DNA of 64,000 nucleotides from Desulfuromonadales bacterium (GTDB lineage Bacteria; Desulfobacterota; JAENJC01). The notes below the pieces were generated by a model. The model saw nothing but the letters and a program-made list of their open reading frames with translations, did not search any database and was not told where the DNA came from. The stretch covers positions 29,676 through 93,675 of the forward strand of contig CAKKSC010000021.1 in assembly GCA_919902985.1 (NCBI GenBank), in the 5' to 3' direction. The position numbers and the translations under genes are program-made. Positions 5,015 to 59,984 of the stretch are shown piece after piece. Positions within the stretch are counted from its first letter, which is position 1. Each line of letters begins with the position of its first letter.

Positions 5015-5270
5015 TATACAACCTAATAACTGCAAACCACAGAGGCCACAGAGATAAATTTTGGGTATAACTTTTCAATACCATTTTCTTCTCTGTGTTC
5101 TCGTGAGGTTGATTTAAAAAAATATCGGGTTTTTAAAAGTCCCCCTTTGAGTGCACAGAGAAAAGATTGAAAACAAGTTTATTCTTTTGTTATTAAAGGG
5201 TTTTCTCCGCGTGTCTGTGGTTAGATTGCAGGATTTAGGTACAATAAAACTCTTATATGTGGCGCATAGA

Positions 5271-9576: not shown

Positions 9577-9605
9577 GTAGGGGCGGGTTTGAAACCAGCC
9601 CCTAC
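9577..9605. repeat. GTAGGGGCGGG-loop-CCAGCCCCTAC hairpin (REP-like) in the 5' leader of the second cheR; a sister copy is at 59956..59984
   Basis: A near-perfect palindrome sits immediately after a TATAAT hexamer (9571..9576) and before the AAGAGG RBS. The same arm sequence recurs between panC and panD. Confidence 0.5.
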
Positions 9606-26562: not shown

Positions 26563-27849
26563 ATGAAAGAGGAAATCCTTGAAAAGAAGTTGGAGAGGGA
26601 GCGGCAAAAGGTCAATATCCTCGAGAAGATGATAGAGGACAGGACCCGCGAACTCTACATCGTCAATGAATATCTCCAGAACATCAACAACTCTATGGCG
26701 GACACCCTTATCGTCGTCAACCCGGACGGCACGATAAGGAGCGCCAACCGCGCCGCCCTTAATATGCTCGGATACACTGAAGATGAACTGAGGGGAAAAG
26801 ATATTGAGACCCTTTTCGAGAAAGGAGTGGGAACCGGGCCTTCCGGTTTCGGCAGACAAGACTCCGCCGCGAGGAGCGAGACGACCTGCGTCACAAAGGC
26901 CGGAAGGAATATCCCTGTCATACTCTCACGCTCGACAATGAAAGACCTGGACGGGGCCGTCCTTGGCGTCGTATGCCTGGCCCTTGATATCTCGGAACGC
27001 AAAAAAACTGAGGAAAAACTCAGGAAGGCATACGATGAAATCAAGGCGACCCAGGACGCAAGCCTCAGCATCATGGAGGACATGGAGATCCAGAGGAAGA
27101 AGCTGGAGGCAACCGTCAGGGAGAAGGACGCCCTAATGAGTCAGGTTGAAAGGGCCAACAAGGAGCTGCAGGACTTTGCATATATCGTCTCCCACGACCT
27201 CAAGGCCCCGCTCCGTGCCATAGGCACAATTTCAAGCTGGATAGCGGAGGACTATAAGGACAAACTTGACGATGCAGGCAGGGAACAGCTCTTCGTCCTC
27301 CTCCAGAGGACGAAGAGGATGCACGATATGATAGAGGGAATACTCCAGTATTCGAGGGTGGGGAGGATAAAGGGGACGCCTGAGACAATAGACACGGGGA
27401 AGGTTGCGGAACAGGTGAGAGAGGCGCTTTCTTCGCCTGCCAATATGCAAATCAAAATTCATGCGCCGATGCCTGCTATTTTCATAGATCCTGTCCAGAT
27501 AAACCAGATCATCCAAAACCTGATAAGCAACGCAATCAAATATATGGACAAGCCGGAGGGTCTGGTAGAGGTGGGTTGCAGGGATGCAGGAGAGTTTTGG
27601 GAGTTCTATGTTAAGGACAACGGCCCCGGCATAGAAGAAAAGCACTTTGAACGGATATTCCAGATATTCCAGACCCTGAAGGCGCGCGACGAGTTTGAGA
27701 GCACGGGGATAGGTCTGACGATAGTAAAGAAGATAATAGAGCAGAGCGGCGGAAGGGTTTGGGTGGAATCGGAGGTCGGGAATGGGAGCACGTTTAAATT
27801 TACAATACCGAAAGGTACAACGCCCCCGACTTCGTTACCCCCTCTTTAG
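26563..27849 (+). CDS. PAS-domain sensor histidine kinase, a candidate H-NOX partner kinase
   Basis: PAS fold (SMADTLIVVNPDGTIRSAN...). HisKA H-box FAYIVSHDLKAPLRAI. N, G1 and G2 boxes of HATPase_c (ISNAIKY, DNGPGI, GIGLTIVKKI). Confidence 0.85.
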   Translation: MKEEILEKKLERERQKVNILEKMIEDRTRELYIVNEYLQNINNSMADTLIVVNPDGTIRSANRAALNMLGYTEDELRGKDIETLFEKGVGTGPSGFGRQDSAARSETTCVTKAGRNIPVILSRSTMKDLDGAVLGVVCLALDISERKKTEEKLRKAYDEIKATQDASLSIMEDMEIQRKKLEATVREKDALMSQVERANKELQDFAYIVSHDLKAPLRAIGTISSWIAEDYKDKLDDAGREQLFVLLQRTKRMHDMIEGILQYSRVGRIKGTPETIDTGKVAEQVREALSSPANMQIKIHAPMPAIFIDPVQINQIIQNLISNAIKYMDKPEGLVEVGCRDAGEFWEFYVKDNGPGIEEKHFERIFQIFQTLKARDEFESTGIGLTIVKKIIEQSGGRVWVESEVGNGSTFKFTIPKGTTPPTSLPPL

Positions 27850-27891
27850 TAAAGAGGGGGTTGGGGGGAGTTGAAAGGGGGAGGGTTTTAA

Positions 27892-30590: not shown

Positions 30591-30649
30591 GGGGACAGTC
30601 CCTATTCTACGACTTCGCTGCGCTTCGTCCGTAAATAGGGACAGTCCCC
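30591..30649. repeat. 59-bp REP-like element, copy 1 of 3 (GGGGACAGTCCC...core...GGGACAGTCCCC)
   Basis: Each end is a GGGAcagTCCC mini-hairpin flanking a 35-nt core (tattctacgacttcgctgcgcttcgtccgtaaat). Lies between phoB and phoU. Confidence 0.8.
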
Positions 30650-30655
30650 TCCGGT

Positions 30656-31371: not shown

Positions 31372-31430
31372 GGGGACAGTCCCTATTCTACGACTCCGTT
31401 TCACTCCGTCCGTAAATCGGGACAGTCCCC
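31372..31430. repeat. 59-bp REP-like element, copy 2 of 3
   Basis: Same termini as copy 1. The core is cgactccgtttcactccgtccgtaaatc, with a few substitutions. Lies between phoU and pstB. Confidence 0.8.
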
Positions 31431-31431
31431 T

Positions 31432-41259: not shown

Positions 41260-41279
41260 ATATTCCTCCTTAACTATTC

Positions 41280-41338
41280 GGGGACAGTCCCTATTCTACG
41301 ACTTCGCTGCGCTTCGTCCGTAAATTGGGACAGTCCCC
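41280..41338. repeat. 59-bp REP-like element, copy 3 of 3
   Basis: The core is identical to copy 1 (tattctacgacttcgctgcgcttcgtccgtaaat) with the same GGGACAGTCCC termini. Lies between the PAP2 and DAG-kinase-like genes. Confidence 0.8.
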
Positions 41339-42208
41339 ATCTTTCGGAAGGATTACTGTTATGCCTTCCTCTGCTGTTGAAAACTCAGCGGGCAACTGCC
41401 CCACCACATCCCCGTCAGCCTGTATGTAAGTCTTTCCTTTTGATGTTATCTTTAGACTCTTTACCGTGTGATATTCAACATCAGGGTACGTCAGATGCCT
41501 GTTTCGCATGACGCCCCATGTATACCTAAGTATGTTCCCGAACCCCTTGCTCTTGAATATGCATACATCCAGATCATTTCGTTCCATATCCGCAAAGGGG
41601 GTTATAGATATGGTCCCGCCATAATATTTCATATTCCCAACTACTGTCCCGTAACCATTGATCTTCTTGCCGCTGTCAAGCTCTATCTCCAGAGGGGAGG
41701 ACCGATAGGTCAACCCCCTCCCTAGTGCGGTCAGGAGATAAGACAGCCTTCCTGAGAGCCGCTTGAGCCTGACATCAAGGCCGTAAACCACATATGCATC
41801 AAACCCGACGCCCCCCATCAGGAGAAAATAGCGGCCGTTGACCCTTCCAAGGTTTAGCTTTCTTGGCAAACCTTCAAGAATGATGTTGCAGGCCCCTACA
41901 GGGTCCATAGGGATGCCAGTTTCAAGGGCGAATACGTTGACAGTCCCCAGAGGGATGACGCCAAGCGGAATGTCCGAGCCTGCAAGACCGTTTATGATCT
42001 CATTTATGGTCCCGTCCCCGCCTGCGCCTACCACAATATCAACATTTTGGCAGCGAGCATCCCTTGCTGCCTGAAGGGCATCCCCCCTCTTGCTTGTCTC
42101 ATAGAGGTGGACCGTTGCGCCTCTTAGTCTCAAATATGCCCTGACCTGCAGGATGATGTCCTTACCGCCTCGTCCTGCAGTAGGGTTTGCAATAAGTTTA
42201 ATAACCAT
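41291..42208 (-). CDS. Diacylglycerol-kinase catalytic-domain lipid kinase (YegS/BmrU family)
   Basis: Has the GAGGDGT-type motif in IVVGAGGDGTINEIINGL and the overall DAGK_cat layout. Confidence 0.75.
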   Translation of the reverse strand: MVIKLIANPTAGRGGKDIILQVRAYLRLRGATVHLYETSKRGDALQAARDARCQNVDIVVGAGGDGTINEIINGLAGSDIPLGVIPLGTVNVFALETGIPMDPVGACNIILEGLPRKLNLGRVNGRYFLLMGGVGFDAYVVYGLDVRLKRLSGRLSYLLTALGRGLTYRSSPLEIELDSGKKINGYGTVVGNMKYYGGTISITPFADMERNDLDVCIFKSKGFGNILRYTWGVMRNRHLTYPDVEYHTVKSLKITSKGKTYIQADGDVVGQLPAEFSTAEEGITVILPKDGDCPNLRTKRSEVVE

Positions 42209-43608: not shown

Positions 43609-43672
43609 TTGTAGGGGAGGGGCTTGTCCCCTCCAGATTATTCGGGCGGTCGCAAGGGACCACCCCTACGGA
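43609..43672. repeat. GTAGGGGAGGGGCTTGTCCCCTCCAG...GCAAGGGACC.CCCCTAC REP-like element; a second copy at 56649..56708
   Basis: The two copies share ttgtaggggaggggcttgtcccctccag and caagggacc(a/g)cccctac blocks. Both lie between co-directional minus-strand genes. Confidence 0.7.
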
Positions 43673-47357: not shown

Positions 47358-47651
47358 TTACCCGTTAAGACCTTCAATAAAGCCCATCACCTCTTCATTT
47401 GAAGCCATATCGGAGATCATGGAGTCGATGAACTTCATGATGTCTATCTCACTGGGCTTATAAAGGAGTGTAAGGCTTCCTGTCATAGGGTTAGTCTGGA
47501 TGTCTATTATTGACGGGGGGAATGTGACAAAGGAAAAGTTTCTGATGACCTCTGGGATATCTTCGACCTTGACGGAGGAAAGTCTCTTAATAAAGGGGAC
47601 ATCAAGTCTAATGCGTCCAGGGATATGATGGGCAACTTTGTAGGTAATCAT
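47358..47651 (-). CDS. Small HMA-like domain protein with conserved basic motif H-H-I-P-G-R-I-R-L (CoBaHMA-like, tentative)
   Basis: 97 aa (MITYKVAHHIPGRIRLDVP...NPMTGSLTLLYK). It shares the H-x-x-PGR-[IL]-R ... NP[LM]TGS[IL] pattern with 54785..55156, 53996..54454 and the N-terminus of the P-type ATPase. Confidence 0.45.
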   Translation of the reverse strand: MITYKVAHHIPGRIRLDVPFIKRLSSVKVEDIPEVIRNFSFVTFPPSIIDIQTNPMTGSLTLLYKPSEIDIMKFIDSMISDMASNEEVMGFIEGLNG

Positions 47652-47655
47652 CTGG

Positions 47656-47889
47656 CTATCCTATTTGTCTGAAATGAAGTCTTGCTGTCAGAACGTATTT
47701 TACCTTTCTGGGGACGAGTATGGGAAGATAGTCCTTAACCTTTGCCCCTTTCCTGGTCTTATCTAAGGCAACTTCATAGAGGAGTGCGACGTCGTCAAAA
47801 GGTATCCCCGTATCGTTGGCGATTGACTCAATATTATGAAGATGCTGCTTTTTTTCCTTTTCGTTGCCATAGAGTGCGGTTTTGTCCAT
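47656..47889 (-). CDS. Small hypothetical protein
   Basis: 77-aa ORF between the HMA-like gene and the CDF gene. No recognisable motif. The ORF is open to 47925. Confidence 0.3.
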   Translation of the reverse strand: MDKTALYGNEKEKKQHLHNIESIANDTGIPFDDVALLYEVALDKTRKGAKVKDYLPILVPRKVKYVLTARLHFRQIG

Positions 47890-47942
47890 AGAGATGCCCT
47901 TTTTATATAAGAATGATCGTAACAATGACGAAATCTACCAGC

Positions 47943-48803
47943 TTATCCCTCTTCATAAATCTCAACATAGACATCATGGAAACCGAACTTGCTCTCCAAT
48001 CTTTTCTTCAAGGCCTTTATCTCATCCCTGCTGCAAACCTGCCCATCTGTCCTTACCCTTGCAGCCATTATTGTCTTTTCTGGGGTTAATACCCAGACAC
48101 GCAGGTCTTTCACCTGCTTTATGCAGTCAAGACCGTTCCCTATAAATCTTCTTACTCCCTCAATGTCCATCCCGACAGGAGTCCCCTCCATGAGTATCCC
48201 AATGCTGCCTTTCAATAAACTGTATATTGGATATGCCACCAGGAGACCTATAAAGATACTTGTTACTGCATCCATCACGTAAAGACCGGTGAGTTGAATT
48301 ATCACTGAGGATACGATGACTCCCACGGAACCCAGGGCATCATTCAGAATGAGGATATAAGCCCCTTTTATGTTTATATCCCCGGAGCTTTTGTAGAGTT
48401 TGAGCAAGCCAAAACCGTTTACCAGAAGACCGAGAAGCGCTATGTAAAACACCTTCCCTGCATCCAATGCTTGGGGATTTCTTATCCTGTTGTAGGAATC
48501 GACCAGAACAAAAAAAAGCACAAAACCCACCAGCATTCCGTTAAAGAGCCCGGACAGGACCTTGGCCCTTTCATAGCCGAATGTATTGTTATTGTCCGCA
48601 GGCCTTTTGCTGAGTTTCGCGACATAAAGGACTATCAACTGGCCTGTTATGTTAATCGCCATGAATGACGCGTCTGTAAGCAGGGCAAGACTGTTATAAT
48701 AGAGCCCTCCAAGCAGTTCTATAAAAAAGTAACCTATTGTTAATATAAAGACAGTGCCCAGGTTGTAGGTCATTGTTTGCTCCGAAAATAGTTTTTTAAC
48801 CAC
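47943..48803 (-). CDS. Cation diffusion facilitator (CDF) family divalent-cation efflux transporter
   Basis: Six TM helices with the CDF signature region (SLALLTDASFMAIN in TM2, ILNDALGSVGVIV in TM5) and a C-terminal cytoplasmic domain. Confidence 0.8.
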   Translation of the reverse strand: MVKKLFSEQTMTYNLGTVFILTIGYFFIELLGGLYYNSLALLTDASFMAINITGQLIVLYVAKLSKRPADNNNTFGYERAKVLSGLFNGMLVGFVLFFVLVDSYNRIRNPQALDAGKVFYIALLGLLVNGFGLLKLYKSSGDINIKGAYILILNDALGSVGVIVSSVIIQLTGLYVMDAVTSIFIGLLVAYPIYSLLKGSIGILMEGTPVGMDIEGVRRFIGNGLDCIKQVKDLRVWVLTPEKTIMAARVRTDGQVCSRDEIKALKKRLESKFGFHDVYVEIYEEG

Positions 48804-48879
48804 CCCACCGAACCTCCCCTTACCAAGGGGAGGAATTAAATATTCCCCTCCTTGGCAAGGAGGGGCTAGGAAGGTGGTT
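48804..48879. repeat. GC-rich CCCCTCC...GGAGGGG hairpin cluster (REP-like), one of about seven similar hairpins in the window
   Basis: ccaccccacc...cccttaccaaggggagg...cccctccttggcaaggagggg...ggtgg. Similar CCCCTCCC/GGGAGGGG hairpins occur near 25316, 25770, 26446, 27836, 52868 and 62935. Confidence 0.6.
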
Positions 48880-50073
48880 CTAAAGCATCCCTGCCTTATC
48901 CGTAAGTTCCCACGGAAGCCCTATATCCATCCTCCCCACATGGCCATAGGCAGCCAGTTTTCTGTAAAAGCCCCCCTTATTGCTGGATGGCAAGTGCCTG
49001 AGATTGAATTGTCTTATTATTCCGGCAGGCCGAAAGTCGAAATGTCTTTCAATCCGAGAGGCTATTTCTTTATCCGGCATCTTCCCTGTTCCGAAGGTCT
49101 CAACTTGAATGCTTACGGGCCTTGAAAGGCCGATAGAATAGCTTAACATTACTTCACATTCGTCAGCCAGCCGGGCTGCCACAACATTCTTGGCGGCATA
49201 ACGGGCTGCATAGGCCCCGATCCTGTCGATACGCGATGGATCCTTGCCGCTCAAGGCTGCTCCGCTGTGTCTTGAATATTCTCCGTAAGTGTCTATGGCG
49301 TTCTTCCTTCCGGTCAGGCCCGAATGGATCGCAGGTCCTCCCAGGATAAAAGGCCCGTCGGGGTTGACGAATATCCTTGTATCGTTATCCGGTTTTATCT
49401 CTTCATCCTGAAACACGGAGTTGATGAGTGCTTCCCTTATATCCTCCTCAAGCTTATTCAAGCCTGGCCCTCCTGATGAGGCAACTATATTCTGGCTTGC
49501 GATCACTGTTATGCTATGGATCCTGAACGGCCGCCCATCTTTATATTCAACTCCTACCTGGGTCTTGCCGTCAGGGGCAAGGTATGGAAGCGTCCTTTGA
49601 AGTCTGGCTGACGTAAGCTTCCTTGAAAGCTTGTGAGCAAGCCAGATCGGGAGCGGCATAAGGGAAGGGGTCTGGTTGCAGGCAAAGCCGAAGACCGTAA
49701 CCTGGTTCTTGGCCTGGATGCGCTCAATATCATCATCGGAAAGGTTCTTCTCATCAAAAAAATCCTGTCCGTCATAAGGCTGTTCCCTGAGGCTCGTAAT
49801 TATACTGCACGTCTTAGAGTTAAAGGCGTTCTGGTCATAACCTATCTGGCTTATCACCTGCCTTGCAACGTTTGAAAAATCTATAATTGCCCTTGACTCA
49901 AAGCGGGCTGCGATAAAAACAATGGCGGTAGAGAGGGCACACTCCGCAATGACCTTTGAATAAGGGTCCTGCTGGAGAAAGTGATCGACAACGGCGTCGC
50001 TGATAATGTCGCAAAGCTTGTCAGGATGCCCTTCTGTTACCGACTCGGATGTAAACATAAAGTCCTGTTTCAT
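48880..50073 (-). CDS. S-adenosylmethionine synthetase (MetK)-like protein, divergent
   Basis: FTSESVTEGHPDKLCDIISDAV matches the MetK N-terminal motif. GGPAIHSGLTGRKNAIDTYGEYSRHSGAALSGKDPSRIDRIGAYAARYAAKNVVAARLA matches the MetK C-terminal P-loop region, but the usual GGGAFSGKD appears as SGAALSGKD. Overlaps the ATPase stop by 4 nt. Confidence 0.65.
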   Translation of the reverse strand: MKQDFMFTSESVTEGHPDKLCDIISDAVVDHFLQQDPYSKVIAECALSTAIVFIAARFESRAIIDFSNVARQVISQIGYDQNAFNSKTCSIITSLREQPYDGQDFFDEKNLSDDDIERIQAKNQVTVFGFACNQTPSLMPLPIWLAHKLSRKLTSARLQRTLPYLAPDGKTQVGVEYKDGRPFRIHSITVIASQNIVASSGGPGLNKLEEDIREALINSVFQDEEIKPDNDTRIFVNPDGPFILGGPAIHSGLTGRKNAIDTYGEYSRHSGAALSGKDPSRIDRIGAYAARYAAKNVVAARLADECEVMLSYSIGLSRPVSIQVETFGTGKMPDKEIASRIERHFDFRPAGIIRQFNLRHLPSSNKGGFYRKLAAYGHVGRMDIGLPWELTDKAGML

Positions 50074-53000
50074 TGTTTCACCTCGCTTTTTGTCGCCTCA
50101 TTTACCACCAGCGGAAGAAATGCGCTCCCCCCGATAACAAGACCGTCAACAATGCTTAACGGAGCAATTCCAAGGAGACCTCGCAACCCCGGCACTACAA
50201 GGGTCAATCCCTGCAATGCAAAGGAACCGGCCAGGGCGGCGTTCAGATAGCCGTTGGACTGCATGCCCGATCCGGGGGCACTATCGAAGATCCCATGTGT
50301 CTCCGACCTGCAGCTTAACGCATGAAGAAGCTGTCCGGAGGTCAGACTCATAAATGCCATGGTGCTTGCCTGCGGCCCAATTCCATACCTCATAATGCCG
50401 TATCCATATGCGCTGAGGGCCCCGGCTGAAAGCACTGAGGACTCGAAGAAAATCCGCTTGAAATCAGAACTCTTTACAATCGGCTCATCGGGGTCCCTTG
50501 GGGGGCGTGTAAGAACGTCCGGTTCCGGCGGCTCCATTGCCAGGGCAAGGCCTGGCGCTATATCGGACATGATATTGATCCATAAGAGCTGAATTGCGCT
50601 CAACGGCTCTCCAAAGCCTCCGGCGATAGATGTGAACATGACCGTTATCTCACTGATATTCGTGGAAAGAAGGAAATGGACAGACTTCCTTATGTTGTGG
50701 TAGATGGTCCTCCCCTGACTTATGGCAATGATCATGGTTTCAAGGTTGTCATCCTCAATCACGACATCCGCAACCTCGCGGGCTACATCGGTTCCGGTCT
50801 GCCCCATGGCTATCCCCACGTCTGCTGCTTTCAAAGCCGGGCCGTCGTTAATCCCGTCACCCGTCATGGCGACAACCTTGCCGGCCCTTTGAAAGGACTG
50901 GACTATCTGGAGCTTATGGGCCGGACTGACCCTGGAGAAGACCCGGACCCTCTCGCACAGGGCCGTCAACACCTTGGGATCCATTTCTTTCAGGTGGGAA
51001 GAGTCAAGTATCTCAAGCTGCTCCTCCATGCTGAGATTCAACTCTTTCCCGATAGAGTAGGCGGTGGGGCTCTGGTCGCCGGTGATCATGACCGTATCAA
51101 TACCTGCTGCATGGAATTTGCCTATCAGTTCTTTAACGCCTTTACGGACAGGGTCTGCCATGCCTACAAGGCCCAGCCATATAAGGTCGTATGAGGTCGA
51201 GAGGTCGAGAGGTTGAGAGGTTGAGAACTCCTCATCATCACAGATTCTCAACTTCTCATCTTCTGAATGAGTATAAGCCATGCCGAGAACCCGCAATGCA
51301 TCCCCTGCCATGCGCTCATTCACAGTCTCTATAGAGAAACGGTCGTTGTCGGTCAAAGGAAGTTTTTGGCCGTCTTTTATAAACCAGTTACATTGAGAGA
51401 GCACCTCATTGGGGCTCCCCTTTACCGCCGCCAAAAGTCTCTGTCCACCTGTCCCTTCTGCTGATGCATGATAGGAAACCATGTAGTTGCGGTTTTCGGA
51501 GCGGTGGACCATCCTGGTCAGCGGAAATTTCTTCCTTAGGCGGTCTATATCAACGCCGGTGCTGATTGCCATATGCAGCAGCGCATTCTCGGTAGACGAA
51601 CCGTTCAGGATGTATTCTCCATCGTTCATGGTTACCTCACTCTCATTGCACAGTACTGATATATGAATTAACCTGAGCAATTCGTCGTTGGAGTAAGGAT
51701 TTACGATGCCGTTTCCGGAAACAAAATTATTTTCAGAGATCCTTATATGTTTCATTCCGGTGTGTATTGCAACAACCGACATCCTGTTCATGGTAACGGT
51801 CCCTGTCTTGTCAAGGCAGATGGTCTGGACCGCACCCAGCGCCTCCACAGCGTCAAGATGCCTTATCAGGACGTTGTGTCTGCGCATCTTTCGAATGCCT
51901 AAAGCCAGGGTGGTTGTTGCGACCGTTGGAAGACCTTCCGGAACTGCGGCAACGGCCAGGGATATGGCAGACTTAAACATATGAAGAAAACCGTATCCTC
52001 TAAGAATGCCTGCAATGAATACTATGCCGCACACACCGCCGCAGATAAGCACTATTTGAGTGCCTATAGTATCAAGTTGTTTTTCCATGGGAGTTTGAGG
52101 AGGCCTTGTCCCGCCGACCAGGATTTGAATCATCCCTATCTCTGTATATCTGCCGGTGGCAATAATCACAGCCAGCCCCTGTCCGCCGGTAACGAGGGTC
52201 CCCATGTAGACGATGTTCGTCCTGTCCGCAAGAGGGATATTCTCGTCGGATGCAATAATTTCAGCCGTCTTGATAGCAGGCATACTTTCGCCTGTGAGGG
52301 CCGATTCGTCGACGCTTAAGTGTGTGGCCTCTATAAGTCTGGCATCTGCTGCCACATAACTTCCAGGTCTAAGGACAATAATGTCGCCAGGCACAAGTTT
52401 ACCGGCATTTATATTAGTGTAAAGGCCGTCTCTTATAACAATGGCTGACGGTCTGACAAGGCTCTTAAGGGAATGGATCGTCCTTTCCGTCTGCATTTCG
52501 GTAAAATACCCTATGGCCGCATTTATGCCTACTACACCAATTATAACCGCCGCATCAGCCACTCCTCCGGTAAAAATGGATATGCCAGCGGCCACTCCCA
52601 GGAGCGCTACAGGCAAAGATTTAAACTGTTCAAACAGCACGCTGAGCCCGGAGCGCGGGACAGACTCAGGGAGAAGATTCGGGCCGAATCTTTTTGTCCT
52701 GTCACTGACCGATTCAACAGTTAATCCGTTTTTCCGGTCAGTACCCATCAGATCAAGGACCTGGGCAGTACCCATAAGGTGCCAGGCTTCTACCGGCTGT
52801 TCCTGAGCACTGTTAATCAGCTTTCTGAGGGCCGGTCTGCCTGTTATCGGGGAGAAGCCAACTAACTTTTCCCCCCCTTTAGAAAAAGGGGGAGAGGAGG
52901 GGTTTGGTGTCTCAGGATTACTATTGTTGAAATAATCAATTACTACGCTTTCAAGGAGAGATGCAATGTCATTGGATGTATTCCCGGAGTTGAAGAGGAC

Positions 53001-53159
53001 AAGGACGTTGCCGGTCAGAGTATTAATGGCAACGTATGAAATCTCCTGCCTGTGTGAGAACCTTGCCTCTATATATTCCCTCAGGGGCTCCGAACGGTAA
53101 AGCCCTTTTACCTTATATCGAGCCCTTCCGCTTACAGCGGTGTTTATAGTCTGAACCAT
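50070..53159 (-). CDS. P-type cation-transporting ATPase (type II, Ca2+/cation-ATPase-like) with an extra N-terminal HMA-like (CoBaHMA-like) domain
   Basis: Phosphorylation site CLDKTGTVTMN; TGDQ (MITGDQ); hinge GDGINDGPALKAADVGIAMG; a Cation_ATPase_N-like segment (AWHLMGTAQVLDLMGTDRKNGLTVESVSDRTKRFGPN). The first ~60 aa (RARYKVKGLYRS...AINTLTGNVLVLFN) resemble the small HMA-like proteins. Confidence 0.85.
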   Translation of the reverse strand: MVQTINTAVSGRARYKVKGLYRSEPLREYIEARFSHRQEISYVAINTLTGNVLVLFNSGNTSNDIASLLESVVIDYFNNSNPETPNPSSPPFSKGGEKLVGFSPITGRPALRKLINSAQEQPVEAWHLMGTAQVLDLMGTDRKNGLTVESVSDRTKRFGPNLLPESVPRSGLSVLFEQFKSLPVALLGVAAGISIFTGGVADAAVIIGVVGINAAIGYFTEMQTERTIHSLKSLVRPSAIVIRDGLYTNINAGKLVPGDIIVLRPGSYVAADARLIEATHLSVDESALTGESMPAIKTAEIIASDENIPLADRTNIVYMGTLVTGGQGLAVIIATGRYTEIGMIQILVGGTRPPQTPMEKQLDTIGTQIVLICGGVCGIVFIAGILRGYGFLHMFKSAISLAVAAVPEGLPTVATTTLALGIRKMRRHNVLIRHLDAVEALGAVQTICLDKTGTVTMNRMSVVAIHTGMKHIRISENNFVSGNGIVNPYSNDELLRLIHISVLCNESEVTMNDGEYILNGSSTENALLHMAISTGVDIDRLRKKFPLTRMVHRSENRNYMVSYHASAEGTGGQRLLAAVKGSPNEVLSQCNWFIKDGQKLPLTDNDRFSIETVNERMAGDALRVLGMAYTHSEDEKLRICDDEEFSTSQPLDLSTSYDLIWLGLVGMADPVRKGVKELIGKFHAAGIDTVMITGDQSPTAYSIGKELNLSMEEQLEILDSSHLKEMDPKVLTALCERVRVFSRVSPAHKLQIVQSFQRAGKVVAMTGDGINDGPALKAADVGIAMGQTGTDVAREVADVVIEDDNLETMIIAISQGRTIYHNIRKSVHFLLSTNISEITVMFTSIAGGFGEPLSAIQLLWINIMSDIAPGLALAMEPPEPDVLTRPPRDPDEPIVKSSDFKRIFFESSVLSAGALSAYGYGIMRYGIGPQASTMAFMSLTSGQLLHALSCRSETHGIFDSAPGSGMQSNGYLNAALAGSFALQGLTLVVPGLRGLLGIAPLSIVDGLVIGGSAFLPLVVNEATKSEVKQ

Positions 53160-53225
53160 GACAGAACTGGTTTCCTTTCTAACTTCTACAGGAGTGACAG
53201 CTTTTACAAGACCTTATTAGTGTCT

Positions 53226-53948
53226 TTATCGTTTATTAATAGGATATTTGCCCTGTTTCCCTTTTACCCTGCCGGCAGCCTCAGGCTCCTCAATTTCTTC
53301 CTTTACCGGAAAGACCCTTTCTTCCAGAGTGGCTGCAGCAGCCGTCCTCGGCTCCGGCAGGGCAGCACATGCGATGTCCTTAATGCCGCCAACCACACCG
53401 ACCAGTATGTCTTTAACCGACCTGACGGCTGTGTTTCCGATATCGCCGGCCGCCTCAATGGCGCTACTGACAGCGACAGCAGCCACCTGTCCCACATTTC
53501 CACCTACTTCCCTTGTTGCCTCTATGACGCCGTCAACTGTCCTTCTGGCGACCATGGCCACATCGGCCCCGATCTCAGCTGCTCCATTGACAGCGCCTTT
53601 TACCGTCTGTCCAGCAGCAGTAATCACGTCTCCGCCCACATCGCTCACACCCATTACGACCCCCTTTGCCACACTCTTGGTGCTAAGGGTGAGCCCTGTG
53701 CCTACCTCCTCAGTTGCGGCTATTGCCCCCTTAATGACATCTTTTGTAATGTTTACGGTTTCGCCCGCCACGTCGCCTGTTGTCCGCAGGGCATTGGAAA
53801 CAGTGGCCCTCACAAGGCCCACGATCTCCGCCTGGATTTCATTTATTCCTTTCAGGCTTCCTACGATACCTTCCTTAACCGAGTTGCCTGTGCTGCTTAA
53901 TCCTACTTTGATTGTTGTCCCGCTTGTTTCTGTTGTTTCGGTGATCAT
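53226..53948 (-). CDS. Repeat-rich amphipathic protein (Val/Gly/Ala/Thr-rich ~11-residue periodic repeats)
   Basis: AAGGAGG RBS 7 nt before the ATG at 53948. The sequence is dominated by repeats such as TVKGAVNGAAEIGADVAMVARRTVDGVIEATREVGGNVGQVAAVAVSSAIEAAGDIGNTAV. The opposite-strand ORF is low-complexity and rejected. Confidence 0.45.
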   Translation of the reverse strand: MITETTETSGTTIKVGLSSTGNSVKEGIVGSLKGINEIQAEIVGLVRATVSNALRTTGDVAGETVNITKDVIKGAIAATEEVGTGLTLSTKSVAKGVVMGVSDVGGDVITAAGQTVKGAVNGAAEIGADVAMVARRTVDGVIEATREVGGNVGQVAAVAVSSAIEAAGDIGNTAVRSVKDILVGVVGGIKDIACAALPEPRTAAAATLEERVFPVKEEIEEPEAAGRVKGKQGKYPINKR

Positions 53949-53995
53949 TTTATTCCTCCTTTGAATTTTTACCACAAAGCCTTGCGGGTTAATTT

Positions 53996-54454
53996 TTATG
54001 CTCCTTTGAGAAAGATGTTCATCCCGTACCAGATAGCTGTATACCAGGGGATTGAAGCCGCGTTTCCAATACTGATCTGGTATAGACCCGCAGCCAAAAG
54101 TATTAGAAAGGCCAGGGTTGAGATATCCAGTTCATGGCCTGTTAACCTTTTAACCTGCGTATTGAAGTCATTGAAAGTAGTTTTTATCCCTGCAGCCACA
54201 GTAGGGGTCTGATTTGCTCCGTTAAGCCTGAAGAGCTTATTGGTTTCAGCAATTTTCATTACCGATGTAGAGTTTCCTGAATGGATTATCAGTATACTCC
54301 CGGTCAGTGGATTGACCTCTGTCCGGTCTATTCCCTTATGTTGCTGCAATAAGGCGTTGGCGTTCTTAAAGTAACTATCATCGCCCTTTTTGGATGGAAT
54401 TTTTACCCGTATTCTTCCAGAGGTCTGATGGCTGAGGTACGCATCAGGCAGCAT
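53996..54454 (-). CDS. HMA-like (CoBaHMA-like) domain protein with C-terminal hydrophobic segment
   Basis: MLPDAYLSHQTSGRIRVKIP...NPLTGSILIIHS, then a predicted TM helix (ISTLAFLILLAAGLYQI). The ORF is open to 54535. Confidence 0.4.
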   Translation of the reverse strand: MLPDAYLSHQTSGRIRVKIPSKKGDDSYFKNANALLQQHKGIDRTEVNPLTGSILIIHSGNSTSVMKIAETNKLFRLNGANQTPTVAAGIKTTFNDFNTQVKRLTGHELDISTLAFLILLAAGLYQISIGNAASIPWYTAIWYGMNIFLKGA

Positions 54455-54755
54455 TAACAGCGCCCTCCTGAGCGATGCCGGCTGTTTGCACGACCTCCTG
54501 CTGGGGCTCGGCCAGCTCGGATTTCGACTCGGCAATAAGGTCTTCGACTACCTCCTGCATCTCGGCCATTACCTCTTTTCCTTTTTCAAAGACGATGAGT
54601 CCCCCCTTGATTGCGCCCTTGGCCAGGGGCTTTGCGACCGCTGCCGCAATAGGTATAACGATAGGCGCCAGTATTGCAGCGCCCAGACCTATTACAAGCA
54701 TAGGTACGATGTTGCTCCCTTTTAGAACGCCTGTGATGTCATCAAACAGTGCCAT
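54444..54755 (-). CDS. Small membrane-associated protein resembling the DUF5132 family (tentative)
   Basis: 103 aa: MALFDDITGVL...PMLVIGLGAAILAPIVIPIAAAVAKPLAKGAIKGGLIVFEKGKEVMAEMQEVVEDLIAE. One hydrophobic helix followed by an amphipathic acidic tail. Confidence 0.4.
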   Translation of the reverse strand: MALFDDITGVLKGSNIVPMLVIGLGAAILAPIVIPIAAAVAKPLAKGAIKGGLIVFEKGKEVMAEMQEVVEDLIAESKSELAEPQQEVVQTAGIAQEGAVNAA

Positions 54756-54784
54756 TTGTCCTTTACCTCCTGATTTGAAATAGG

Positions 54785-55156
54785 CTATATGAGTATAGCC
54801 AAATATGATAAAGCGCTTCCTTCAAATGCCTTCTCTACAAATGTCCCGAAAAGGGCTTTTTTAACGACATGTCCTGCCTTTGTAACAGCAGAGTGTATAT
54901 ACTGGTCGTTTGTTATGGCCCTTGAAGGATCAAAATAGCTGGCCCTTCTGAGAACGCCTAATATCTCCCTGGAATGAACAGTCCTTGGATCATAGTTGAT
55001 TACAATGCTTCCAGTAATAATATTAATTTCGGTAGACAATATTCCCTTGATTTGCCGGAGCAGACCCCCAACCTCCTCAGCTATCCAACCTTTCCCTTTA
55101 ATCGCTGGATTTTTAACCCTTAATCTACCAGGGACATCGTGAATATAATGATCCAT
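54785..55156 (-). CDS. Small HMA-like (CoBaHMA-like) domain protein
   Basis: GGAGGTG RBS 8 nt before the ATG at 55156. MDHYIHDVPGRLRVKNPAIK...NIITGSIVINYDP. The ORF is open to 55189. Confidence 0.45.
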   Translation of the reverse strand: MDHYIHDVPGRLRVKNPAIKGKGWIAEEVGGLLRQIKGILSTEINIITGSIVINYDPRTVHSREILGVLRRASYFDPSRAITNDQYIHSAVTKAGHVVKKALFGTFVEKAFEGSALSYLAILI

Positions 55157-55175
55157 CCAACTCACCTCCACTTTT

Positions 55176-55379
55176 TTATTTAAAAGCAAAGTCGTTATAT
55201 CTTTGTCCGTGATTTAAGCCATGCACCATGAGTAGTGGACAGCGGTGATGCTCTTCGGTTTTGCAGTACCTTTCAAGTTCAAAGGCGCTTGGAGTCATAT
55301 GAAATGTAGAGGCATTACACATCTTATTTTTTTTGATAGTTCCTAAATACGGGCAATCGCCTATTTCACTTGGCTTCAT
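55176..55379 (-). CDS. Small Cys4-His protein, paralogue of 42198..42407; first gene of the cation-cluster operon
   Basis: 67 aa: CPYLGTIKKNKMCNASTFHMTPSAFELERYCKTEEHHRCPLLMVH, with the same Cys/His spacing as the paralogue. Confidence 0.45.
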   Translation of the reverse strand: MKPSEIGDCPYLGTIKKNKMCNASTFHMTPSAFELERYCKTEEHHRCPLLMVHGLNHGQRYNDFAFK

Positions 55380-55422
55380 AAAAACCCCCTCATTTTGATC
55401 TGCTACACTTTAAACTATAAAT

Positions 55423-55461: not shown

Positions 55462-56512
55462 GTTGAGCCTTTCTGAACGATACTGTAAAGGTGCTTCCGA
55501 CTCCCTCTTTGCTTTTTACCGAGATACTGCCGCCCATTGCATCCATAAGCAATCCGACAATATAAAGGCCCAGTCCGGTCCCTTGTGCCCGTTCGCTGCC
55601 TTTAGCACGAAAAAACTTTTCAAATATCTTTGGCAATTCATCCTCAAAGATTCCGTATCCTGTATCCTTGACAGAGACCTCAATGCCGTTGGATATATTG
55701 TTGGTATATATCCAGATATTCCCATTTTTCCTGTTATATTTAACGGCATTGGATAAGAGGTTTATCAGTACCTGTCTTATCGCAACGGTATTACCGCCGA
55801 CCACACAGGGCTGGTCGTTTATGAGATGGATATCTATCTCCTTACTCACCGTATTGGCACTGACTGTGTTTATTGCCCAGTTAAGCTGCTCGGAAATGTC
55901 GACATTTTCCAAAGGAAATAAACCATCGCCTTTCTCAAGTTTAGACAAGAGAAAGGCATCGTTTAAAAGGCTGTCCATATGGTTGGCGCTGGAATTTACG
56001 TAATACAGGTATTTGCCGTTATCTCCATTCTCCATTGCCAGCTTGCTGAAGCCTCCAACAGTAGTAAGAGAGTTTTTCAGCTCATGGACCAGATATTGAA
56101 GGGAGTCATGCCCTTCTTTCTCTTTTCTTTTAAGGGTTTTTATAGTCTTTTCTTTTTCCAGAAGCCTCTTTACCCTGAGCATCAGTTCCTTTACTGAAAA
56201 CGGCTTCGAAAGGTAATCATCAGCGCCAATGGTTAGACCCTTAATCTGTTCCTCCTTTGTAGACAGGGCAGTGAGCATGATTATAGGTATAGTCATACCT
56301 TTAGAACGCAAGGCTTCACAAGTTTCCCATCCGTTAAGACCTGGGAGCATTATGTCCAAAAGTATGAGATCGAGGTTATGCGTCTGTAAAGCAATTATAG
56401 CCTCTTCCCCGTTTTGGGCAGTCACGGTGCTGTACCCTTCCTTGTGGAGGTTGTACCTGAGCAGCTCAATAGTGTCCTTTGTGTCCTCAACGATTAAGAC
56501 CGTTTCATTCAT
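55457..56512 (-). CDS. Hybrid response regulator - histidine kinase (REC - HisKA - HATPase_c)
   Basis: N-terminal REC (VLIVEDTKD...ILLDIMLPGLNG...IIMLTA...K). H-box LVHELKNSLTTV. N, G1 and G2 boxes (LLSNAVKYN, DTGYGI, GTGLGLYIV). Confidence 0.8.
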   Translation of the reverse strand: MNETVLIVEDTKDTIELLRYNLHKEGYSTVTAQNGEEAIIALQTHNLDLILLDIMLPGLNGWETCEALRSKGMTIPIIMLTALSTKEEQIKGLTIGADDYLSKPFSVKELMLRVKRLLEKEKTIKTLKRKEKEGHDSLQYLVHELKNSLTTVGGFSKLAMENGDNGKYLYYVNSSANHMDSLLNDAFLLSKLEKGDGLFPLENVDISEQLNWAINTVSANTVSKEIDIHLINDQPCVVGGNTVAIRQVLINLLSNAVKYNRKNGNIWIYTNNISNGIEVSVKDTGYGIFEDELPKIFEKFFRAKGSERAQGTGLGLYIVGLLMDAMGGSISVKSKEGVGSTFTVSFRKAQL

Positions 56513-56648: not shown

Positions 56649-56708
56649 TGTAGGGGAGGGGCTTGTCCCCTCCAGTTGCGGGGGGGCACAAGGGACCGCC
56701 CCTACATG
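56649..56708. repeat. Second copy of the GTAGGGGAGGGGCTTGTCCCCTCCAG...CCCCTAC REP-like element
   Basis: See 43609..43672. The 69-aa ORF 56509..56718 is largely a translation of this repeat. Confidence 0.7.
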
Positions 56709-57130: not shown

Positions 57131-57177
57131 ACGTTTATCTCCTTTTTATGATTTCAGATGGAGTTTAACAAAGGATT

Positions 57178-57216
57178 GTTACGGGTTTATGACGGATAGG
57201 TTAAGATTTAGTTACA
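57178..57216 (-). promoter_or_regulatory. Pho-box-like array: GTTACG / ATGACG / GTTAAG / GTTACA at 11-bp phasing
   Basis: Hexamers start at 57178, 57189, 57200 and 57211. The nearest repeat is 48 nt upstream of the PsiE-like ATG (57130). It lies in the intergenic region shared with the divergent intI gene. Confidence 0.55.
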
Positions 57217-57243
57217 ATTTTAATTAAAAGGATTTTCTGTGTT

Positions 57244-58293
57244 ATGATGAAATACAAAGGGGATATGAAATGGTCAAGATTGAAGGGCGGCAGTCGTTTC
57301 AATGAATGGCGATGCCTTGATAAGTCCGGTTCCCCGGACTGGGACAAGATAATAGAAGACCTTGCTGCTGAGATCAAGACCCGTCACTATTCCCGGAAGA
57401 CCCTAAAGACTTATGCGGACTGGTGCCGAAAGTTTCAGAAATTCCTGAAAAACAAGCCTACAGAGGCATTGACATCGGATGATGTGAAGGCATATCTCAC
57501 CTATCTTGCCGTGAAGCGCAAGGTTGCCGCATCTACTCAGAACCAGGCTTTCAATGCTCTATTGTTTTTATACCGGCATATCCTGAAGCAGGATTTTGGC
57601 GTCCACAAGGACATCCCACGCGCCAAGAGATCGAGATATATTCCGGTGGTGCTATCGCGTCAGGAGATTGAGGCCGTGCTGAATCATCTCGATCATCCTT
57701 ACAGCCTTGCGGTTAAGCTGCTGTATGGTTGCGGACTCCGTCTTTTTGAATGTGTGAACCTGAGGGTGAAGGATTTTAATTTCGATGCCCGGGTACTTAC
57801 AGTCCGCGGAAAAGGGAATAAAAGCAAGACCGTGCCTATCCCGAAAAAGATAGTACAGGAACTGACAGCCCAGCTTGAGGCTGTAAAAAGGCTCCACGAC
57901 GAAGATTTGGCGGCGGGGTTTGACGGCGTTTTTTTAGATGACCAACTCGAAAAGAAATATCCGAGGGCCGCGAAGGAGTTTATCTGGCAATGGTTCTTCC
58001 CTCAGAAATCATTGACTCTTGTTGATGAAACTAAGGAGCGGAGACGGTATCATCTTCATGACTCACACGTCCAGCAGGCGTTGTACGAGTCGGTAAGACT
58101 GGCAAAACTCACGAAGCGGGTCACCTGTCACACCTTCCGCCACTCTTTTGCCACTCACCTATTGCAGGCCAATTACGATATCCGTACCATACAGGTGCTT
58201 CTCGGCCACAGCGATGTGCGGACGACTATGATATATACCCACTGTGTGCCAAGCAGGACTGTGAAGGAGGCGAAGAGTCCGCTGGATTTCTGA
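57244..58293 (+). CDS. intI: Integron-type tyrosine recombinase (IntI)
   Basis: Tyrosine recombinase boxes (R...HxxR...Y: TFRHSFATHLL...IRTIQVLLGHSDVRTTMIYTHC). The IntI-specific additional domain is LEKKYPRAAKEFIWQWFFPQ...RRRYHLHDSHVQQA (compare IntI1 [21 protein letters not shown]...RRHHMYDQTFQRA). Confidence 0.8.
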   Translation: MMKYKGDMKWSRLKGGSRFNEWRCLDKSGSPDWDKIIEDLAAEIKTRHYSRKTLKTYADWCRKFQKFLKNKPTEALTSDDVKAYLTYLAVKRKVAASTQNQAFNALLFLYRHILKQDFGVHKDIPRAKRSRYIPVVLSRQEIEAVLNHLDHPYSLAVKLLYGCGLRLFECVNLRVKDFNFDARVLTVRGKGNKSKTVPIPKKIVQELTAQLEAVKRLHDEDLAAGFDGVFLDDQLEKKYPRAAKEFIWQWFFPQKSLTLVDETKERRRYHLHDSHVQQALYESVRLAKLTKRVTCHTFRHSFATHLLQANYDIRTIQVLLGHSDVRTTMIYTHCVPSRTVKEAKSPLDF

Positions 58294-58401
58294 AGTTGTG
58301 ATAAAGGCCCGGCAAATTTCCTTACTGACTGAAATCTCCGTTTGTAAAAAAGTTCAATTTAAAATATAATCGAAAACCGTAAATGTGCGGAGGACTTTTA
58401 A

Positions 58402-58737
58402 ATGAACCCAAAAGTAAGAAACGCCGTTACAGACTTTGTAAAGATGGTAAAAGAAGGGGATGTGGCCTCAAAAATAGATTTTATAAGGCTCTATGGTTCA
58501 GCATTGGGCGATGAATACAAGCCGGAAAAAAGCGATGTGGATTTATTCATTGTCTCTGCCGATAAGGGTGTCTATGAAAGGATACTCGATTATCAGAATG
58601 AAGTGGGGCTCAAATACGGCATTCCTCTTTCTATTGTTTTTGATACAGAGGACGAGTTTGAGAAAGAAATGTCATACGGCTCCTCTTTTTTGAAGAATGT
58701 CATTAACAGCGGGGAGCTGCTATATGGGCGAGGCTGA
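58402..58737 (+). CDS. Minimal nucleotidyltransferase (MNT) domain protein, antitoxin-like partner of the HEPN gene
   Basis: GSxxxG...D-x-D motif in LYGSALGDEYKPEKSDVDLFIV. 111 aa. Immediately followed by a HEPN-domain gene. Confidence 0.7.
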   Translation: MNPKVRNAVTDFVKMVKEGDVASKIDFIRLYGSALGDEYKPEKSDVDLFIVSADKGVYERILDYQNEVGLKYGIPLSIVFDTEDEFEKEMSYGSSFLKNVINSGELLYGRG

Positions 58738-59114
58738 TGTTCAGCTAAAGATAGCTGAAAATGCTTGCTGATGCAAAGCTTCTGTATGAGCAGAAACGGT
58801 ACAGGTCGGCGGCAAGCAGGGCATATTATGCCATCTTTCACGCGGCGAAGGCCTTGCTTAACCAAGTTGGTCAAAGCTGCCAGTCTCACGGTGGCGTCAT
58901 AAGCAGGTTTGGGCAATATGTCGTGAATACGGGCCTTATGGATAAAGACTTTTCATAATTTTTTGGCCGCGCATATAACCTTAGAGAGAAAAGCGATTAC
59001 GGACTTCTATTTGAGGGTATAGAGGAAGAGGTTGGAAGAGTGGTTTCAGATGCTGAAAAGTTTATTGACGAGGCGACAAAGGTTTTGCACCAACTGCAAA
59101 GTAAACTAAAATGA
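58724..59114 (+). pseudogene. HEPN-domain toxin-like gene, disrupted (N-terminal frameshift and an in-frame TAA)
   Basis: Three collinear pieces rebuild a complete HEPN domain: MGEADVQLKIAENA (frame of 58724); MLADAKLLYEQKRYRSAASRAYYAIFHAAKALL...GLMDKDFS then TAA at 58959; then FFGRAYNLREKSDYGLLFEGIEEEVGRVVSDAEKFIDEATKVLHQLQSKLK in the same frame, ending at the TGA overlapping the panC ATG. Confidence 0.55.
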
Positions 59115-59959
59115 AGGTCATTGAATACATTCATGAGATGAAAGAGGCATCTCAGGCCTTGAGAGCTGAGGGTAACAAGATATCCTTTGTCCCTACAATG
59201 GGCTATCTTCACCAGGGTCATCTGAGCCTGTTGAAGAAGGGGAGAGATGTTGGTGATCTCCTTGTTATGAGCATATTTGTAAACCCTGCCCAGTTTGCCA
59301 AAGGCGAAGACTTTGAACGATATCCCAGGGATTTTGAGAGAGATAAAAAGATGTGCGAAAGCGAATCTGTAGATATCCTCTTTCTTCCTAACGCCAGAGA
59401 GATATACCCTGATGGATATCAGACATATGTTGAAGTTGAGGGGGTCACAAAAAACCTTTGTGGAACCTCAAGACCTGGGCACTTCAGGGGCGTGGCAACT
59501 GTGGTGACTAAGCTGTTTAATATCGTCAGGCCGCATTATGCGATATTCGGGGAGAAGGACTTTCAGCAGTTAGTTACGATAAAGAGGCTTGCACTCGACC
59601 TGGATATGGATGTGGATGTCATCGGGATGCCGATTGTCAGGGAGGCCGACGGCCTTGCAATGAGTTCCAGGAACAGTTATTTGGGCCAGGAAGAGAGGGC
59701 GGCAGCCGGAAGCATCTACAGGGCTATTCAGCGGTCAAAAGAGGTGTTTGATGAAGGGGAAAGGTCTGCCGGGATACTCTTGAACGAGGCCAGGAAAGTG
59801 GTGGAAATCAGTCCCCTTATCGAGCCGGAATATGTTAAACTGGTAAATATGGGGACAATGGAAGAGGTAGACAGGGTTGAGAATGAGGCCCTGCTGGCCA
59901 TTGCTGTGAGGATTGGGAAGACAAGGCTGATAGATAATATTATATTACGGAAGGCGTAG
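59111..59959 (+). CDS. panC: Pantoate--beta-alanine ligase (pantothenate synthetase)
   Basis: HIGH-like motif VPTMGYLHQGHLSLL and overall PanC pattern. 282 aa. Confidence 0.9.
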   Translation: MKVIEYIHEMKEASQALRAEGNKISFVPTMGYLHQGHLSLLKKGRDVGDLLVMSIFVNPAQFAKGEDFERYPRDFERDKKMCESESVDILFLPNAREIYPDGYQTYVEVEGVTKNLCGTSRPGHFRGVATVVTKLFNIVRPHYAIFGEKDFQQLVTIKRLALDLDMDVDVIGMPIVREADGLAMSSRNSYLGQEERAAAGSIYRAIQRSKEVFDEGERSAGILLNEARKVVEISPLIEPEYVKLVNMGTMEEVDRVENEALLAIAVRIGKTRLIDNIILRKA

Positions 59960-59984
59960 GGGCGGGTTTCAAACCCGCCCCTAC
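59956..59984. repeat. Perfect 12-bp-stem hairpin GTAGGGGCGGGT-ttcaa-ACCCGCCCCTAC overlapping the panC stop codon (REP-like; sister of 9577..9605)
   Basis: The palindrome is read directly from the sequence. No U-tract follows it, so it is not a canonical intrinsic terminator. Confidence 0.6.

Follow-up and report, generated by a model that had tools for sequence, protein, structure and literature searches.

In0 elements, defined by an integron integrase gene (intI) without an attC site within 4 kb on either side, account for 51 of the 215 IntI integrases of complete genomes (Cury et al. 2016, PMC4889954). Here we describe an intI gene of a Desulfuromonadales bacterium that falls under this IntegronFinder definition. 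The gene occupies positions 57244-58293 of the forward strand in a stretch of 64,000 nucleotides (contig CAKKSC010000021.1, positions 29,676 to 93,675; assembly GCA_919902985.1), referred to throughout as the window. A divergent psiE-like gene lies upstream, and an MNT nucleotidyltransferase gene, a broken HEPN gene and panC follow downstream on the same strand. The locus resembles In0 in that its intI is bona fide and that no attC can be recognised in the 4 kb to either side. However, the original In0 keeps its attI, whereas in the window the promoter region of a neighbouring gene has taken the place of the upstream DNA with any attI in it, and of the 5′ third that the gene has elsewhere in its clade. 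A preliminary description, made by eye from the sequence, had offered three readings: a degenerate, possibly inverted integron remnant, an In0, and an integrase domesticated for another role. In0 fits best, and we consider it likely that the window intI is a solitary In0-type integrase gene, the relic of a sedentary chromosomal integron, with the MNT/HEPN pair being separate from it.

Several other described systems resemble parts of the locus. The nearest relatives of the window integrase are the long IntI proteins of sedentary integrons of the Nitrospirota, Desulfobacterota and Geobacter type. These carry an extra PF13495 domain and a linker of 39-101 residues and are often accompanied by divergent attC arrays, whereas the window has neither the domain and linker nor an array. 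The MNT/HEPN pair is similar to the type VII toxin-antitoxin system MntA/HepT in being a two-gene module with a 14-nt overlap and in the GS...DxD motif of the MNT protein. Unlike in that system, the window MNT protein reaches only 19.4 bits with the MntA model (NCBIfam NF047752, cutoff 60), the HEPN motif is R-x4-Y rather than Rx4-6H, and the toxin gene is inactivated. Finally, integrases are able to insert cassettes at non-att genomic sites near promoters (attG/SALIN; Loot et al., bioRxiv 10.1101/2022.09.11.507474). The window pair is likewise a promoterless module placed after a host promoter and beside an integrase gene, but it has no attC and, being common to relatives without intI at that place, predates its adjacency to intI.

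Identity and condition of the integrase

The window open reading frame (ORF) is a genuine, intact and conserved IntI core, not a XerC or XerD recombinase. Read from the ATG at 57244 it encodes 349 residues; translation more likely starts at the ATG at 57265 (342 residues), which is preceded by a Shine-Dalgarno (SD)-like AAAGGGG and is where NCBI protein P0001 begins. The preliminary description had recognised an integron-type integrase by its IntI-specific insertion and had named XerC/XerD as the competing identity. Profile searches bear out the former: the protein scores 375.5 bits with NCBIfam TIGR02249 'integron integrase' (cutoff 265; model positions 2-313 of 315), while the XerC, XerD and XerA models stay far under their cutoffs. 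Its Pfam domains are PF13495 and PF00589 (the latter at 1.7e-35). The best match among solved structures is VchIntIA (IntI4; 2A3V; E 8e-77, VchIntIA residues 13-310), and the alignment spans the IntI-specific segment KKYPRAAKEFIWQWFFPQ...RRYHLHD (2A3V residues ~190-250). VchIntIA residue 13 pairs with residue 44 of the window protein, so the remaining ORF still spans a full canonical IntI. The two proteins share the IntI-specific helix region (WQWFFPQ versus WHYLFPS) and the catalytic residues, whose state the preliminary description had wished to see checked: R166, K190, H296, R299, H322 and Y331 of the window protein correspond to the VchIntIA catalytic positions and are invariant in our alignment of homologues (A1). 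They differ in that overall identity is ~40%, VchIntIA W157 aligns to an arginine of the window protein, and no cognate attC or attI lies near the window gene.

The gene is also well preserved. There are no frameshifts or stops in the ORF, and DNA homology with the intI of relatives extends over 57286-58293 (+), from the GGSRFNEW core to the stop codon, at 73-87% identity. Only two residues depart from the at least 95% consensus of 120 homologues (R to K at 195, A to S at 283). Residue 195 (57826-57828) is arginine in all ~118 homologues compared and sits in the β-hairpin GKGNKS(R/K)TVP beside the catalytic lysine. The dN/dS ratio (Nei-Gojobori) is 0.078 relative to locus L009, the closest full-length relative. 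With four different outgroups, the window branch has accumulated 22-37 synonymous versus 3-5 nonsynonymous changes, which is indistinguishable from the full-length sister branch. Thus, the window intI has evolved under strong purifying selection along its branch, and the protein could still be an active recombinase. Five other contigs carry the locus, 99.9-100% identical to the window over the region; the arrangement psiE-intI-panC was found in this one population only.

A long IntI clade with a second N-terminal domain, probably lost in the window lineage

A protein search with the window IntI returned thousands of homologues of 76-92% identity, most of them 460-500 residues long. In alignment A1, the long homologues consist of an N-terminal segment of ~85 residues, a variable linker of 39-101 residues and a core that begins at GGSRFNEW. 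Pfam assigns the N-terminal segment to Phage_int_SAM_4 as well (PF13495, 37.5 bits, cutoff 27), which makes it a second domain of this kind. A comparison of this domain with the SAM domain of the core by hhalign was weak (probability 24%) and was set aside, the Pfam scan of the domain being decisive instead. By tblastn the second SAM-like domain lies directly 5′ of the core in 86 fetched loci, and the same search found zero matches anywhere in the 64-kb window. Even for two homologues called short (P0004, P0030), the DNA still encodes the domain. The window protein nests within the long-form clade (P0002-P0120, L006-L098), its core being 76-92% identical to theirs, and the parsimonious reading is therefore that the N-terminal domain and linker were lost in the window lineage.

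The long clade deserves attention in its own right. Tandem-SAM IntI proteins occur in Nitrospirota, Desulfobacterota, Geobacter/Geomonas isolates, anammox Planctomycetes, Acidobacteria and Tectomicrobia at 60-92% identity, with the extra Phage_int_SAM_4 domain fused in frame to a canonical IntI (for example, L009 189-476 and L059 9605-9865). A targeted full-text literature search found no description of a long IntI with such an N-terminal extension. In two relatives the gene is called short: in L098 the N-terminal domain (4052-4294) and the IntI core (4354-5400) are in different frames, and in L097 the start is frameshifted (~680-700). These frame breaks may be sequencing errors, real decay or recoding.

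That the domain matters is suggested by its retention in essentially every relative across several phyla; recognition of attI is a candidate function for it. One might accordingly ask whether the window gene is a non-functional relic, in which the lost SAM-like domain, the lost native promoter or both were required and lesions have simply not yet accumulated. The native upstream region has indeed been wholly replaced, and the strictly conserved arginine has become lysine at position 195. However, experimentally active canonical integrases do without such a domain. VchIntIA has 320 residues, of which the window protein covers 13-310; IntI1, with 337 residues, is also a canonical IntI without an extra N-terminal domain. 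Moreover, the window gene is free of frameshifts and stops, has its own SD and ATG, and is preceded by a promoter-like site. We therefore hold a dead gene to be unlikely.

Search for attC and attI sites

The preliminary description had recognised neither attC nor attI by eye and had proposed a covariance-model search. Since a scan of the whole window with Rfam at the gathering threshold gave 0 matches, we built an attC detector from the sites of relatives. A scan of a genome collection with the IntI alignment supplied 80 loci (Nitrospirota, Desulfobacterota, Geobacterales, anammox Planctomycetes and others), and a crude hairpin scan, combining AAC...GTT ends with DNA folding energy, located attC-like sites of 50-110 nt upstream of many of their intI genes. 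A first seed, a MAFFT alignment of 35 attC sites of mixed length (A2), was abandoned, as RNAalifold returned the R-box helix only. The final seed (A3) comprised 17 cleanly aligned sites with a hand-set structure of R''/R' and L''/L' helices. Covariation supports these helices: 87% of cells are paired and 66 cells show double-sided changes; the observed value was reached in 0 of 500 shuffles, and slid controls were 30-42% paired. The resulting model, R1, produced 129 matches at E<=1 in 1.2 Mb of relatives' loci. All are on the opposite strand to intI; 128 precede the gene, and the remaining one, in L072, is borderline (E 0.82). A second model, R2, was rebuilt from all 129 R1 sites and found attC sites upstream of intI in L097 and L098, which served as positive controls. 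Upstream sequence of 3 kb or more was available for 46 relatives, and 31 of these have at least one attC match at E<0.01.

In the 64-kb window, on either strand, R1 had no match at E<=1. Even with filters off, R1 scored at most 10.5 bits (E 4) in the window and R2 at most 11.3 bits (E 2.7), compared with 20-60 bits for the sites of relatives, and neither model had a match between 53.5 and 64 kb. Nothing rises above background, so the impression gained by eye holds under a validated model: there is no attC in the 57 kb to the left or the 5.7 kb to the right of intI. Nor was any homology found between the DNA upstream of the window intI and that upstream of the relatives' intI. A stricter attC heuristic was dropped, having missed a known copy in L006. 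A relaxed, energy-based hairpin scan gave four window matches, none beside intI; one (55917-55967) is inside a response-regulator/histidine-kinase (RR-HK) hybrid gene, and those at 27815-27876 and 48794-48883 are dispersed palindromes, to which we return below.

A junction of two chromosomal blocks

Comparison of the flanks delimits what is left of the integron. To the left is the psiE-like gene (PF06146; 56702-57130, -), which diverges from intI and belongs to a conserved chromosomal block that continues leftward with the RR-HK gene. With the RR-HK protein as query we found relatives of this block (L103, L105 and L106), in which homology runs through psiE and its upstream region to ~57249 (L103/L105, 87%) or 57218 (L106, 78%); past this end the relatives run into an outer-membrane-like or HD-domain gene, not intI. 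The psiE upstream regulatory region (57131-57254) is thus kept in relatives without intI and is probably not an attI. The Pho-box-like array that the preliminary description had placed in the shared 5′ region of intI does lie there, but as psiE upstream DNA and not as part of an integron. A promoter scan picked out a weak promoter-like site within it (57189-57218, +), 5′ of intI.

To the right, a sigma-70-type promoter, TTGTAA-17-TATAAT (58342-58370, +), is the best promoter-like site of the region, and panC (59111-59959, +), followed by panD, starts a second conserved chromosomal block, 89-90% identical to L094, L095 and L099. The promoter stands directly before panC in L094 and is conserved upstream of MNT in L099 and L101. 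In L095, in which panB overlaps panC, and in L096, the homology on this side starts with the panC ATG; panB and dNK homologues are absent from the window, as are the genes that flank intI in L009. As both flanks are common to relatives without intI at these places, integron-specific DNA is confined to ~57255-58313 (+). The breakpoints, at ~57250-57255 and ~58313-58331, were placed from hand-read alignments. This segment of ~1.06 kb holds the truncated ORF together with ~30 nt of the former linker and a 3′ tail of ~20 nt, whose first 10-12 nt resemble the 3′ flank in L009 and L097. Synteny is therefore broken at the window intI: the ordinary chromosome blocks on its two sides are not neighbours in relatives.

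Such a position would also fit a domesticated integrase, that is, an IntI core kept by selection for a non-integron role such as rearrangements at non-canonical sites or at hairpin-forming palindromes. The breakpoints fall ~30 nt and ~20 nt from an intact ORF with usable SD and ATG, purifying selection is strong with no lesions, and dispersed palindromes, one family with AAC...GTT ends, are abundant. However, no substrate was found, the palindromes score at background with the attC models, the truncation may be too recent for selection to inform, and the arrangement is limited to one population. We give domestication a small chance only.

The DNA just upstream of panC is a hotspot for variable DNA in this lineage. 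L096 (1395-7933) has a JetABCD-like (Wadjet-type) block of DUF3375, MksE/JetB, an SMC-like ATPase and JetD_C between panB and panC; L099 (1-114) has a group II intron fragment (RF02005, 51.5 bits); L101 (207-2263) has an HNH-like gene and genes without an assigned role; and L094 (1-60) has a terminator hairpin only. Farther to the left of the RR-HK gene, a metal-homeostasis cluster (~47500-55400, -) includes small HMA_2 proteins, DUF5132, a P-type ATPase, metK and a cation-efflux gene. Being 88-92% conserved in relatives, it is not a cassette array despite its run of small ORFs.

The MNT/HEPN pair

The two genes between intI and panC were correctly identified in the preliminary description. 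The MNT nucleotidyltransferase, a putative antitoxin (58402-58737, +; 111 residues, intact), scores above the cutoffs of PF18765 and PF01909, and its motif reads GS-x11-DVD. The HEPN pseudogene (58724-59114, +) starts at an ATG (58724) that overlaps the MNT 3′ end by 14 nt. Compared with its L101 orthologue it has lost 2 nt after 58758 (GCTGAGGAAATG to GCTGAAAATG), and an AAA codon has become TAA at 58956-58958. Both lesions had been noted previously, with the TAA misplaced at 58959. One piece is called as an ORF of 65 residues (58761-58958, +), which alone scores 41 bits with PF05168, whereas the repaired protein scores 70 bits (positions 5-113 of 117). The HEPN motif is R-E-K-S-D-Y, of the UPF0332/AF0298 type, and the L101 HEPN protein matches the UPF0332 protein AF0298 (2HSB) with 73 bits. 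In the window, then, the toxin gene is inactivated by a 2-nt deletion and a nonsense codon while MNT is intact. The terminal TGA of HEPN (59112-59114) overlaps the panC ATG (59111-59113), as had been seen, and this had been taken for a decayed pair fused onto panC.

The context of the pair in relatives speaks otherwise. Our comparison rests on two MNT protein clusters, with orthologues 95% and 87% identical to the window protein. In L101 and L102 (87%), the order is promoter-MNT-HEPN-panC with an intact HEPN gene of 130 residues, and the upstream neighbours are a 208-residue ORF and the HNH-like gene, not intI. The L101 HEPN gene likewise shares four nucleotides, ATGA, with the ORF that follows. 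Of that ORF 35 residues were called, and these read as the N-terminus of panC. As the overlap exists with an intact HEPN gene, it is by all appearances the native arrangement and not a product of decay. In L099 and L100 (95%), the order is promoter-MNT followed by a GxxExxY/PDDEXK_3 gene in the place of HEPN and then panC, with the group II intron fragment upstream. All four loci align with the window only from 58332 onward, beyond the intI stop codon, and the MNT/HEPN insertion is absent from the panC leader of L094. Since the promoter-MNT-HEPN-panC order exists in relatives without an adjacent intI, these alignments indicate that the pair is a separate, older insertion into the panC leader, independent of intI and predating its adjacency to it, rather than a cassette. 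Both genes are predicted to be transcribed from the conserved panC promoter.

The rival view is that of a degenerate or inverted integron, with attI downstream of intI and MNT/HEPN as the last decaying cassette. It has some appeal: MNT/HEPN pairs are common as integron cassettes, this pair is located directly 3′ of intI on the same strand, and its place just downstream of a promoter recalls the insertion of cassettes by integrases at non-att sites near promoters. However, there is no attC on either strand near the pair in the window or near the related modules in L099-L102, a look for remnants of flanking sites having been suggested as a check; R2 found no attC in either the panC-side or the psiE-side loci of relatives. 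The intact L101 HEPN gene, running into an ORF that reads as panC, leaves no room for a 3′ attC; the MNT unit exists without an adjacent intI in two other lineages; and all arrays found in relatives are upstream of intI and divergent. We also found no MNT or HEPN homologues in the relatives' integron loci. An inverted integron is therefore very improbable, and a cassette origin of MNT/HEPN is effectively excluded. As to psiE, the only match in the relatives' integron loci is in L052, ~5 kb downstream of intI and outside the array side.

The pair shows further signs of change. In L099 (649-1069), HEPN is reduced to its first ~5 codons (MGEAD), followed by the GxxExxY/PDDEXK_3 gene (TIGR04256, 138 bits). 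The toxin has been lost on two independent occasions, once in the window and once in L099, with MNT kept in both. One contig from another sequencing run (L005) has an extra T in the MNT T-run at 58685 that would shift the frame. Either the homopolymer was misassembled, or MNT has begun to decay in some members of the population. A direct repeat around the junction (58214-58241 versus 58383-58410, 79% identical) was considered as a duplication scar and rejected, because L099 and L101 also conserve its second copy, as the native ribosome-binding region of MNT.

Dispersed repeats and palindromes

A GTAGGGGCGG palindrome just downstream of psiE (56649-56706) was considered as an attC and rejected: it is a member of a REP-like family and has background R1 and R2 scores. 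Palindromes of this family (GTAGGGGCGG...CCGCCCCTAC) are located at 9577-9605, 17626-17768, 43611-43669, 56650-56705 and 59956-59984, often just after stop codons, for example those of psiE and panC; 13 half-sites are present in the window against 2.9 expected by chance.

A palindrome of ~62 nt (..ATAACTCCCCC..CCCCCTCTTATCTTAAGAGGGGG..GGGGGCGTTAT..) is found within the linker of the intI ORF in L014 (1226-1287), L015 (615-676), L024 (778-839) and L039 (325-386), where it is translated in frame as ..PPLILRGG(G/E)AGGVT... Related copies in the window are those at 27815-27876 and 48794-48883. Although its AAC...GTT ends are attC-like, it scores at background with the attC models. Finally, a repeat of 60-70 nt (GGGGACAGTCCCTATTCTACGAC...AAATAGGGACAGTCCCC) is present three times in the window (30591-30650, 31372-31431 and 41273-41342) and twice in L096 (402-468 and 9117-9184). 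Its copies in the window and in L096 are 87-95% identical, compared with only 75% for panC, which points to an intergenic element that is mobile or under strong constraint.

Probable origin and possible fate of the solitary integrase

Taken together, these comparisons suggest the following course of events for an In0-type relic. The ancestor would have been a sedentary chromosomal integron from the clade that is frequent among Nitrospirota and Desulfobacterota, with an IntI of ~460-500 residues and a cassette array upstream of intI on the opposite strand. Through deletion or rearrangement, everything upstream of the linker end would have been lost, namely the first SAM-like domain, the native intI promoter, attI and all cassettes. 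What remained would be ~1.06 kb of integron DNA wedged between the psiE and panC promoter regions, in which the ORF, with a new SD and the ATG at 57265, would encode a canonical IntI of VchIntIA/IntI1 size. The MNT/HEPN pair would have been inserted into the panC leader earlier, and its toxin gene inactivated later. Having no substrate in cis, the integrase would presumably act, if at all, in trans on attC sites elsewhere in the genome.

Several points weigh against this account or limit it. The attC scan covers 64 kb of one contig, and the genome elsewhere may hold an array or a CALIN. The attC models were trained on the sites of relatives, sites being found in 67% of those eligible, and a very atypical attC may escape them. 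The order of events might also have been different, with import of a gene-sized fragment in place of a deletion on the spot. The truncation may be recent, and dN/dS, being measured over the whole branch, does not demonstrate selection after it. In addition, nearly all of the relatives' proteins have the clade's N-terminal domain, and the window protein may not be active without it.

Domestication, a silent relic and a trans-acting enzyme cannot be separated computationally. That the bare core is a trans-acting or domesticated recombinase maintained by selection, rather than debris, is argued by breakpoints that spare the ORF, by the gain of its own SD and ATG and by a dN/dS of ~0.08; on balance we regard it as improbable. 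In that case, the second SAM-like domain found throughout the clade would be dispensable for catalysis. The substrates of the enzyme would be attC arrays elsewhere or non-canonical genomic sites, and the enzyme may itself have created the psiE-panC junction where its gene sits.

Taken by itself, the locus adds a further example to the In0 class, from a groundwater bacterium that is uncultured. It nevertheless offers a clean natural example of the death of an integron platform: the first losses are the array side and the 5′ part of intI, while the canonical core remains intact between unrelated chromosomal blocks. It also cautions that a toxin-antitoxin pair near intI is no evidence of cassette origin, since here comparative loci show the pair to be older than its adjacency to intI. 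The more interesting lead is the tandem-SAM architecture of the cross-phylum IntI clade rather than the window gene itself, which represents a natural deletion variant of the extra N-terminal domain of that clade.

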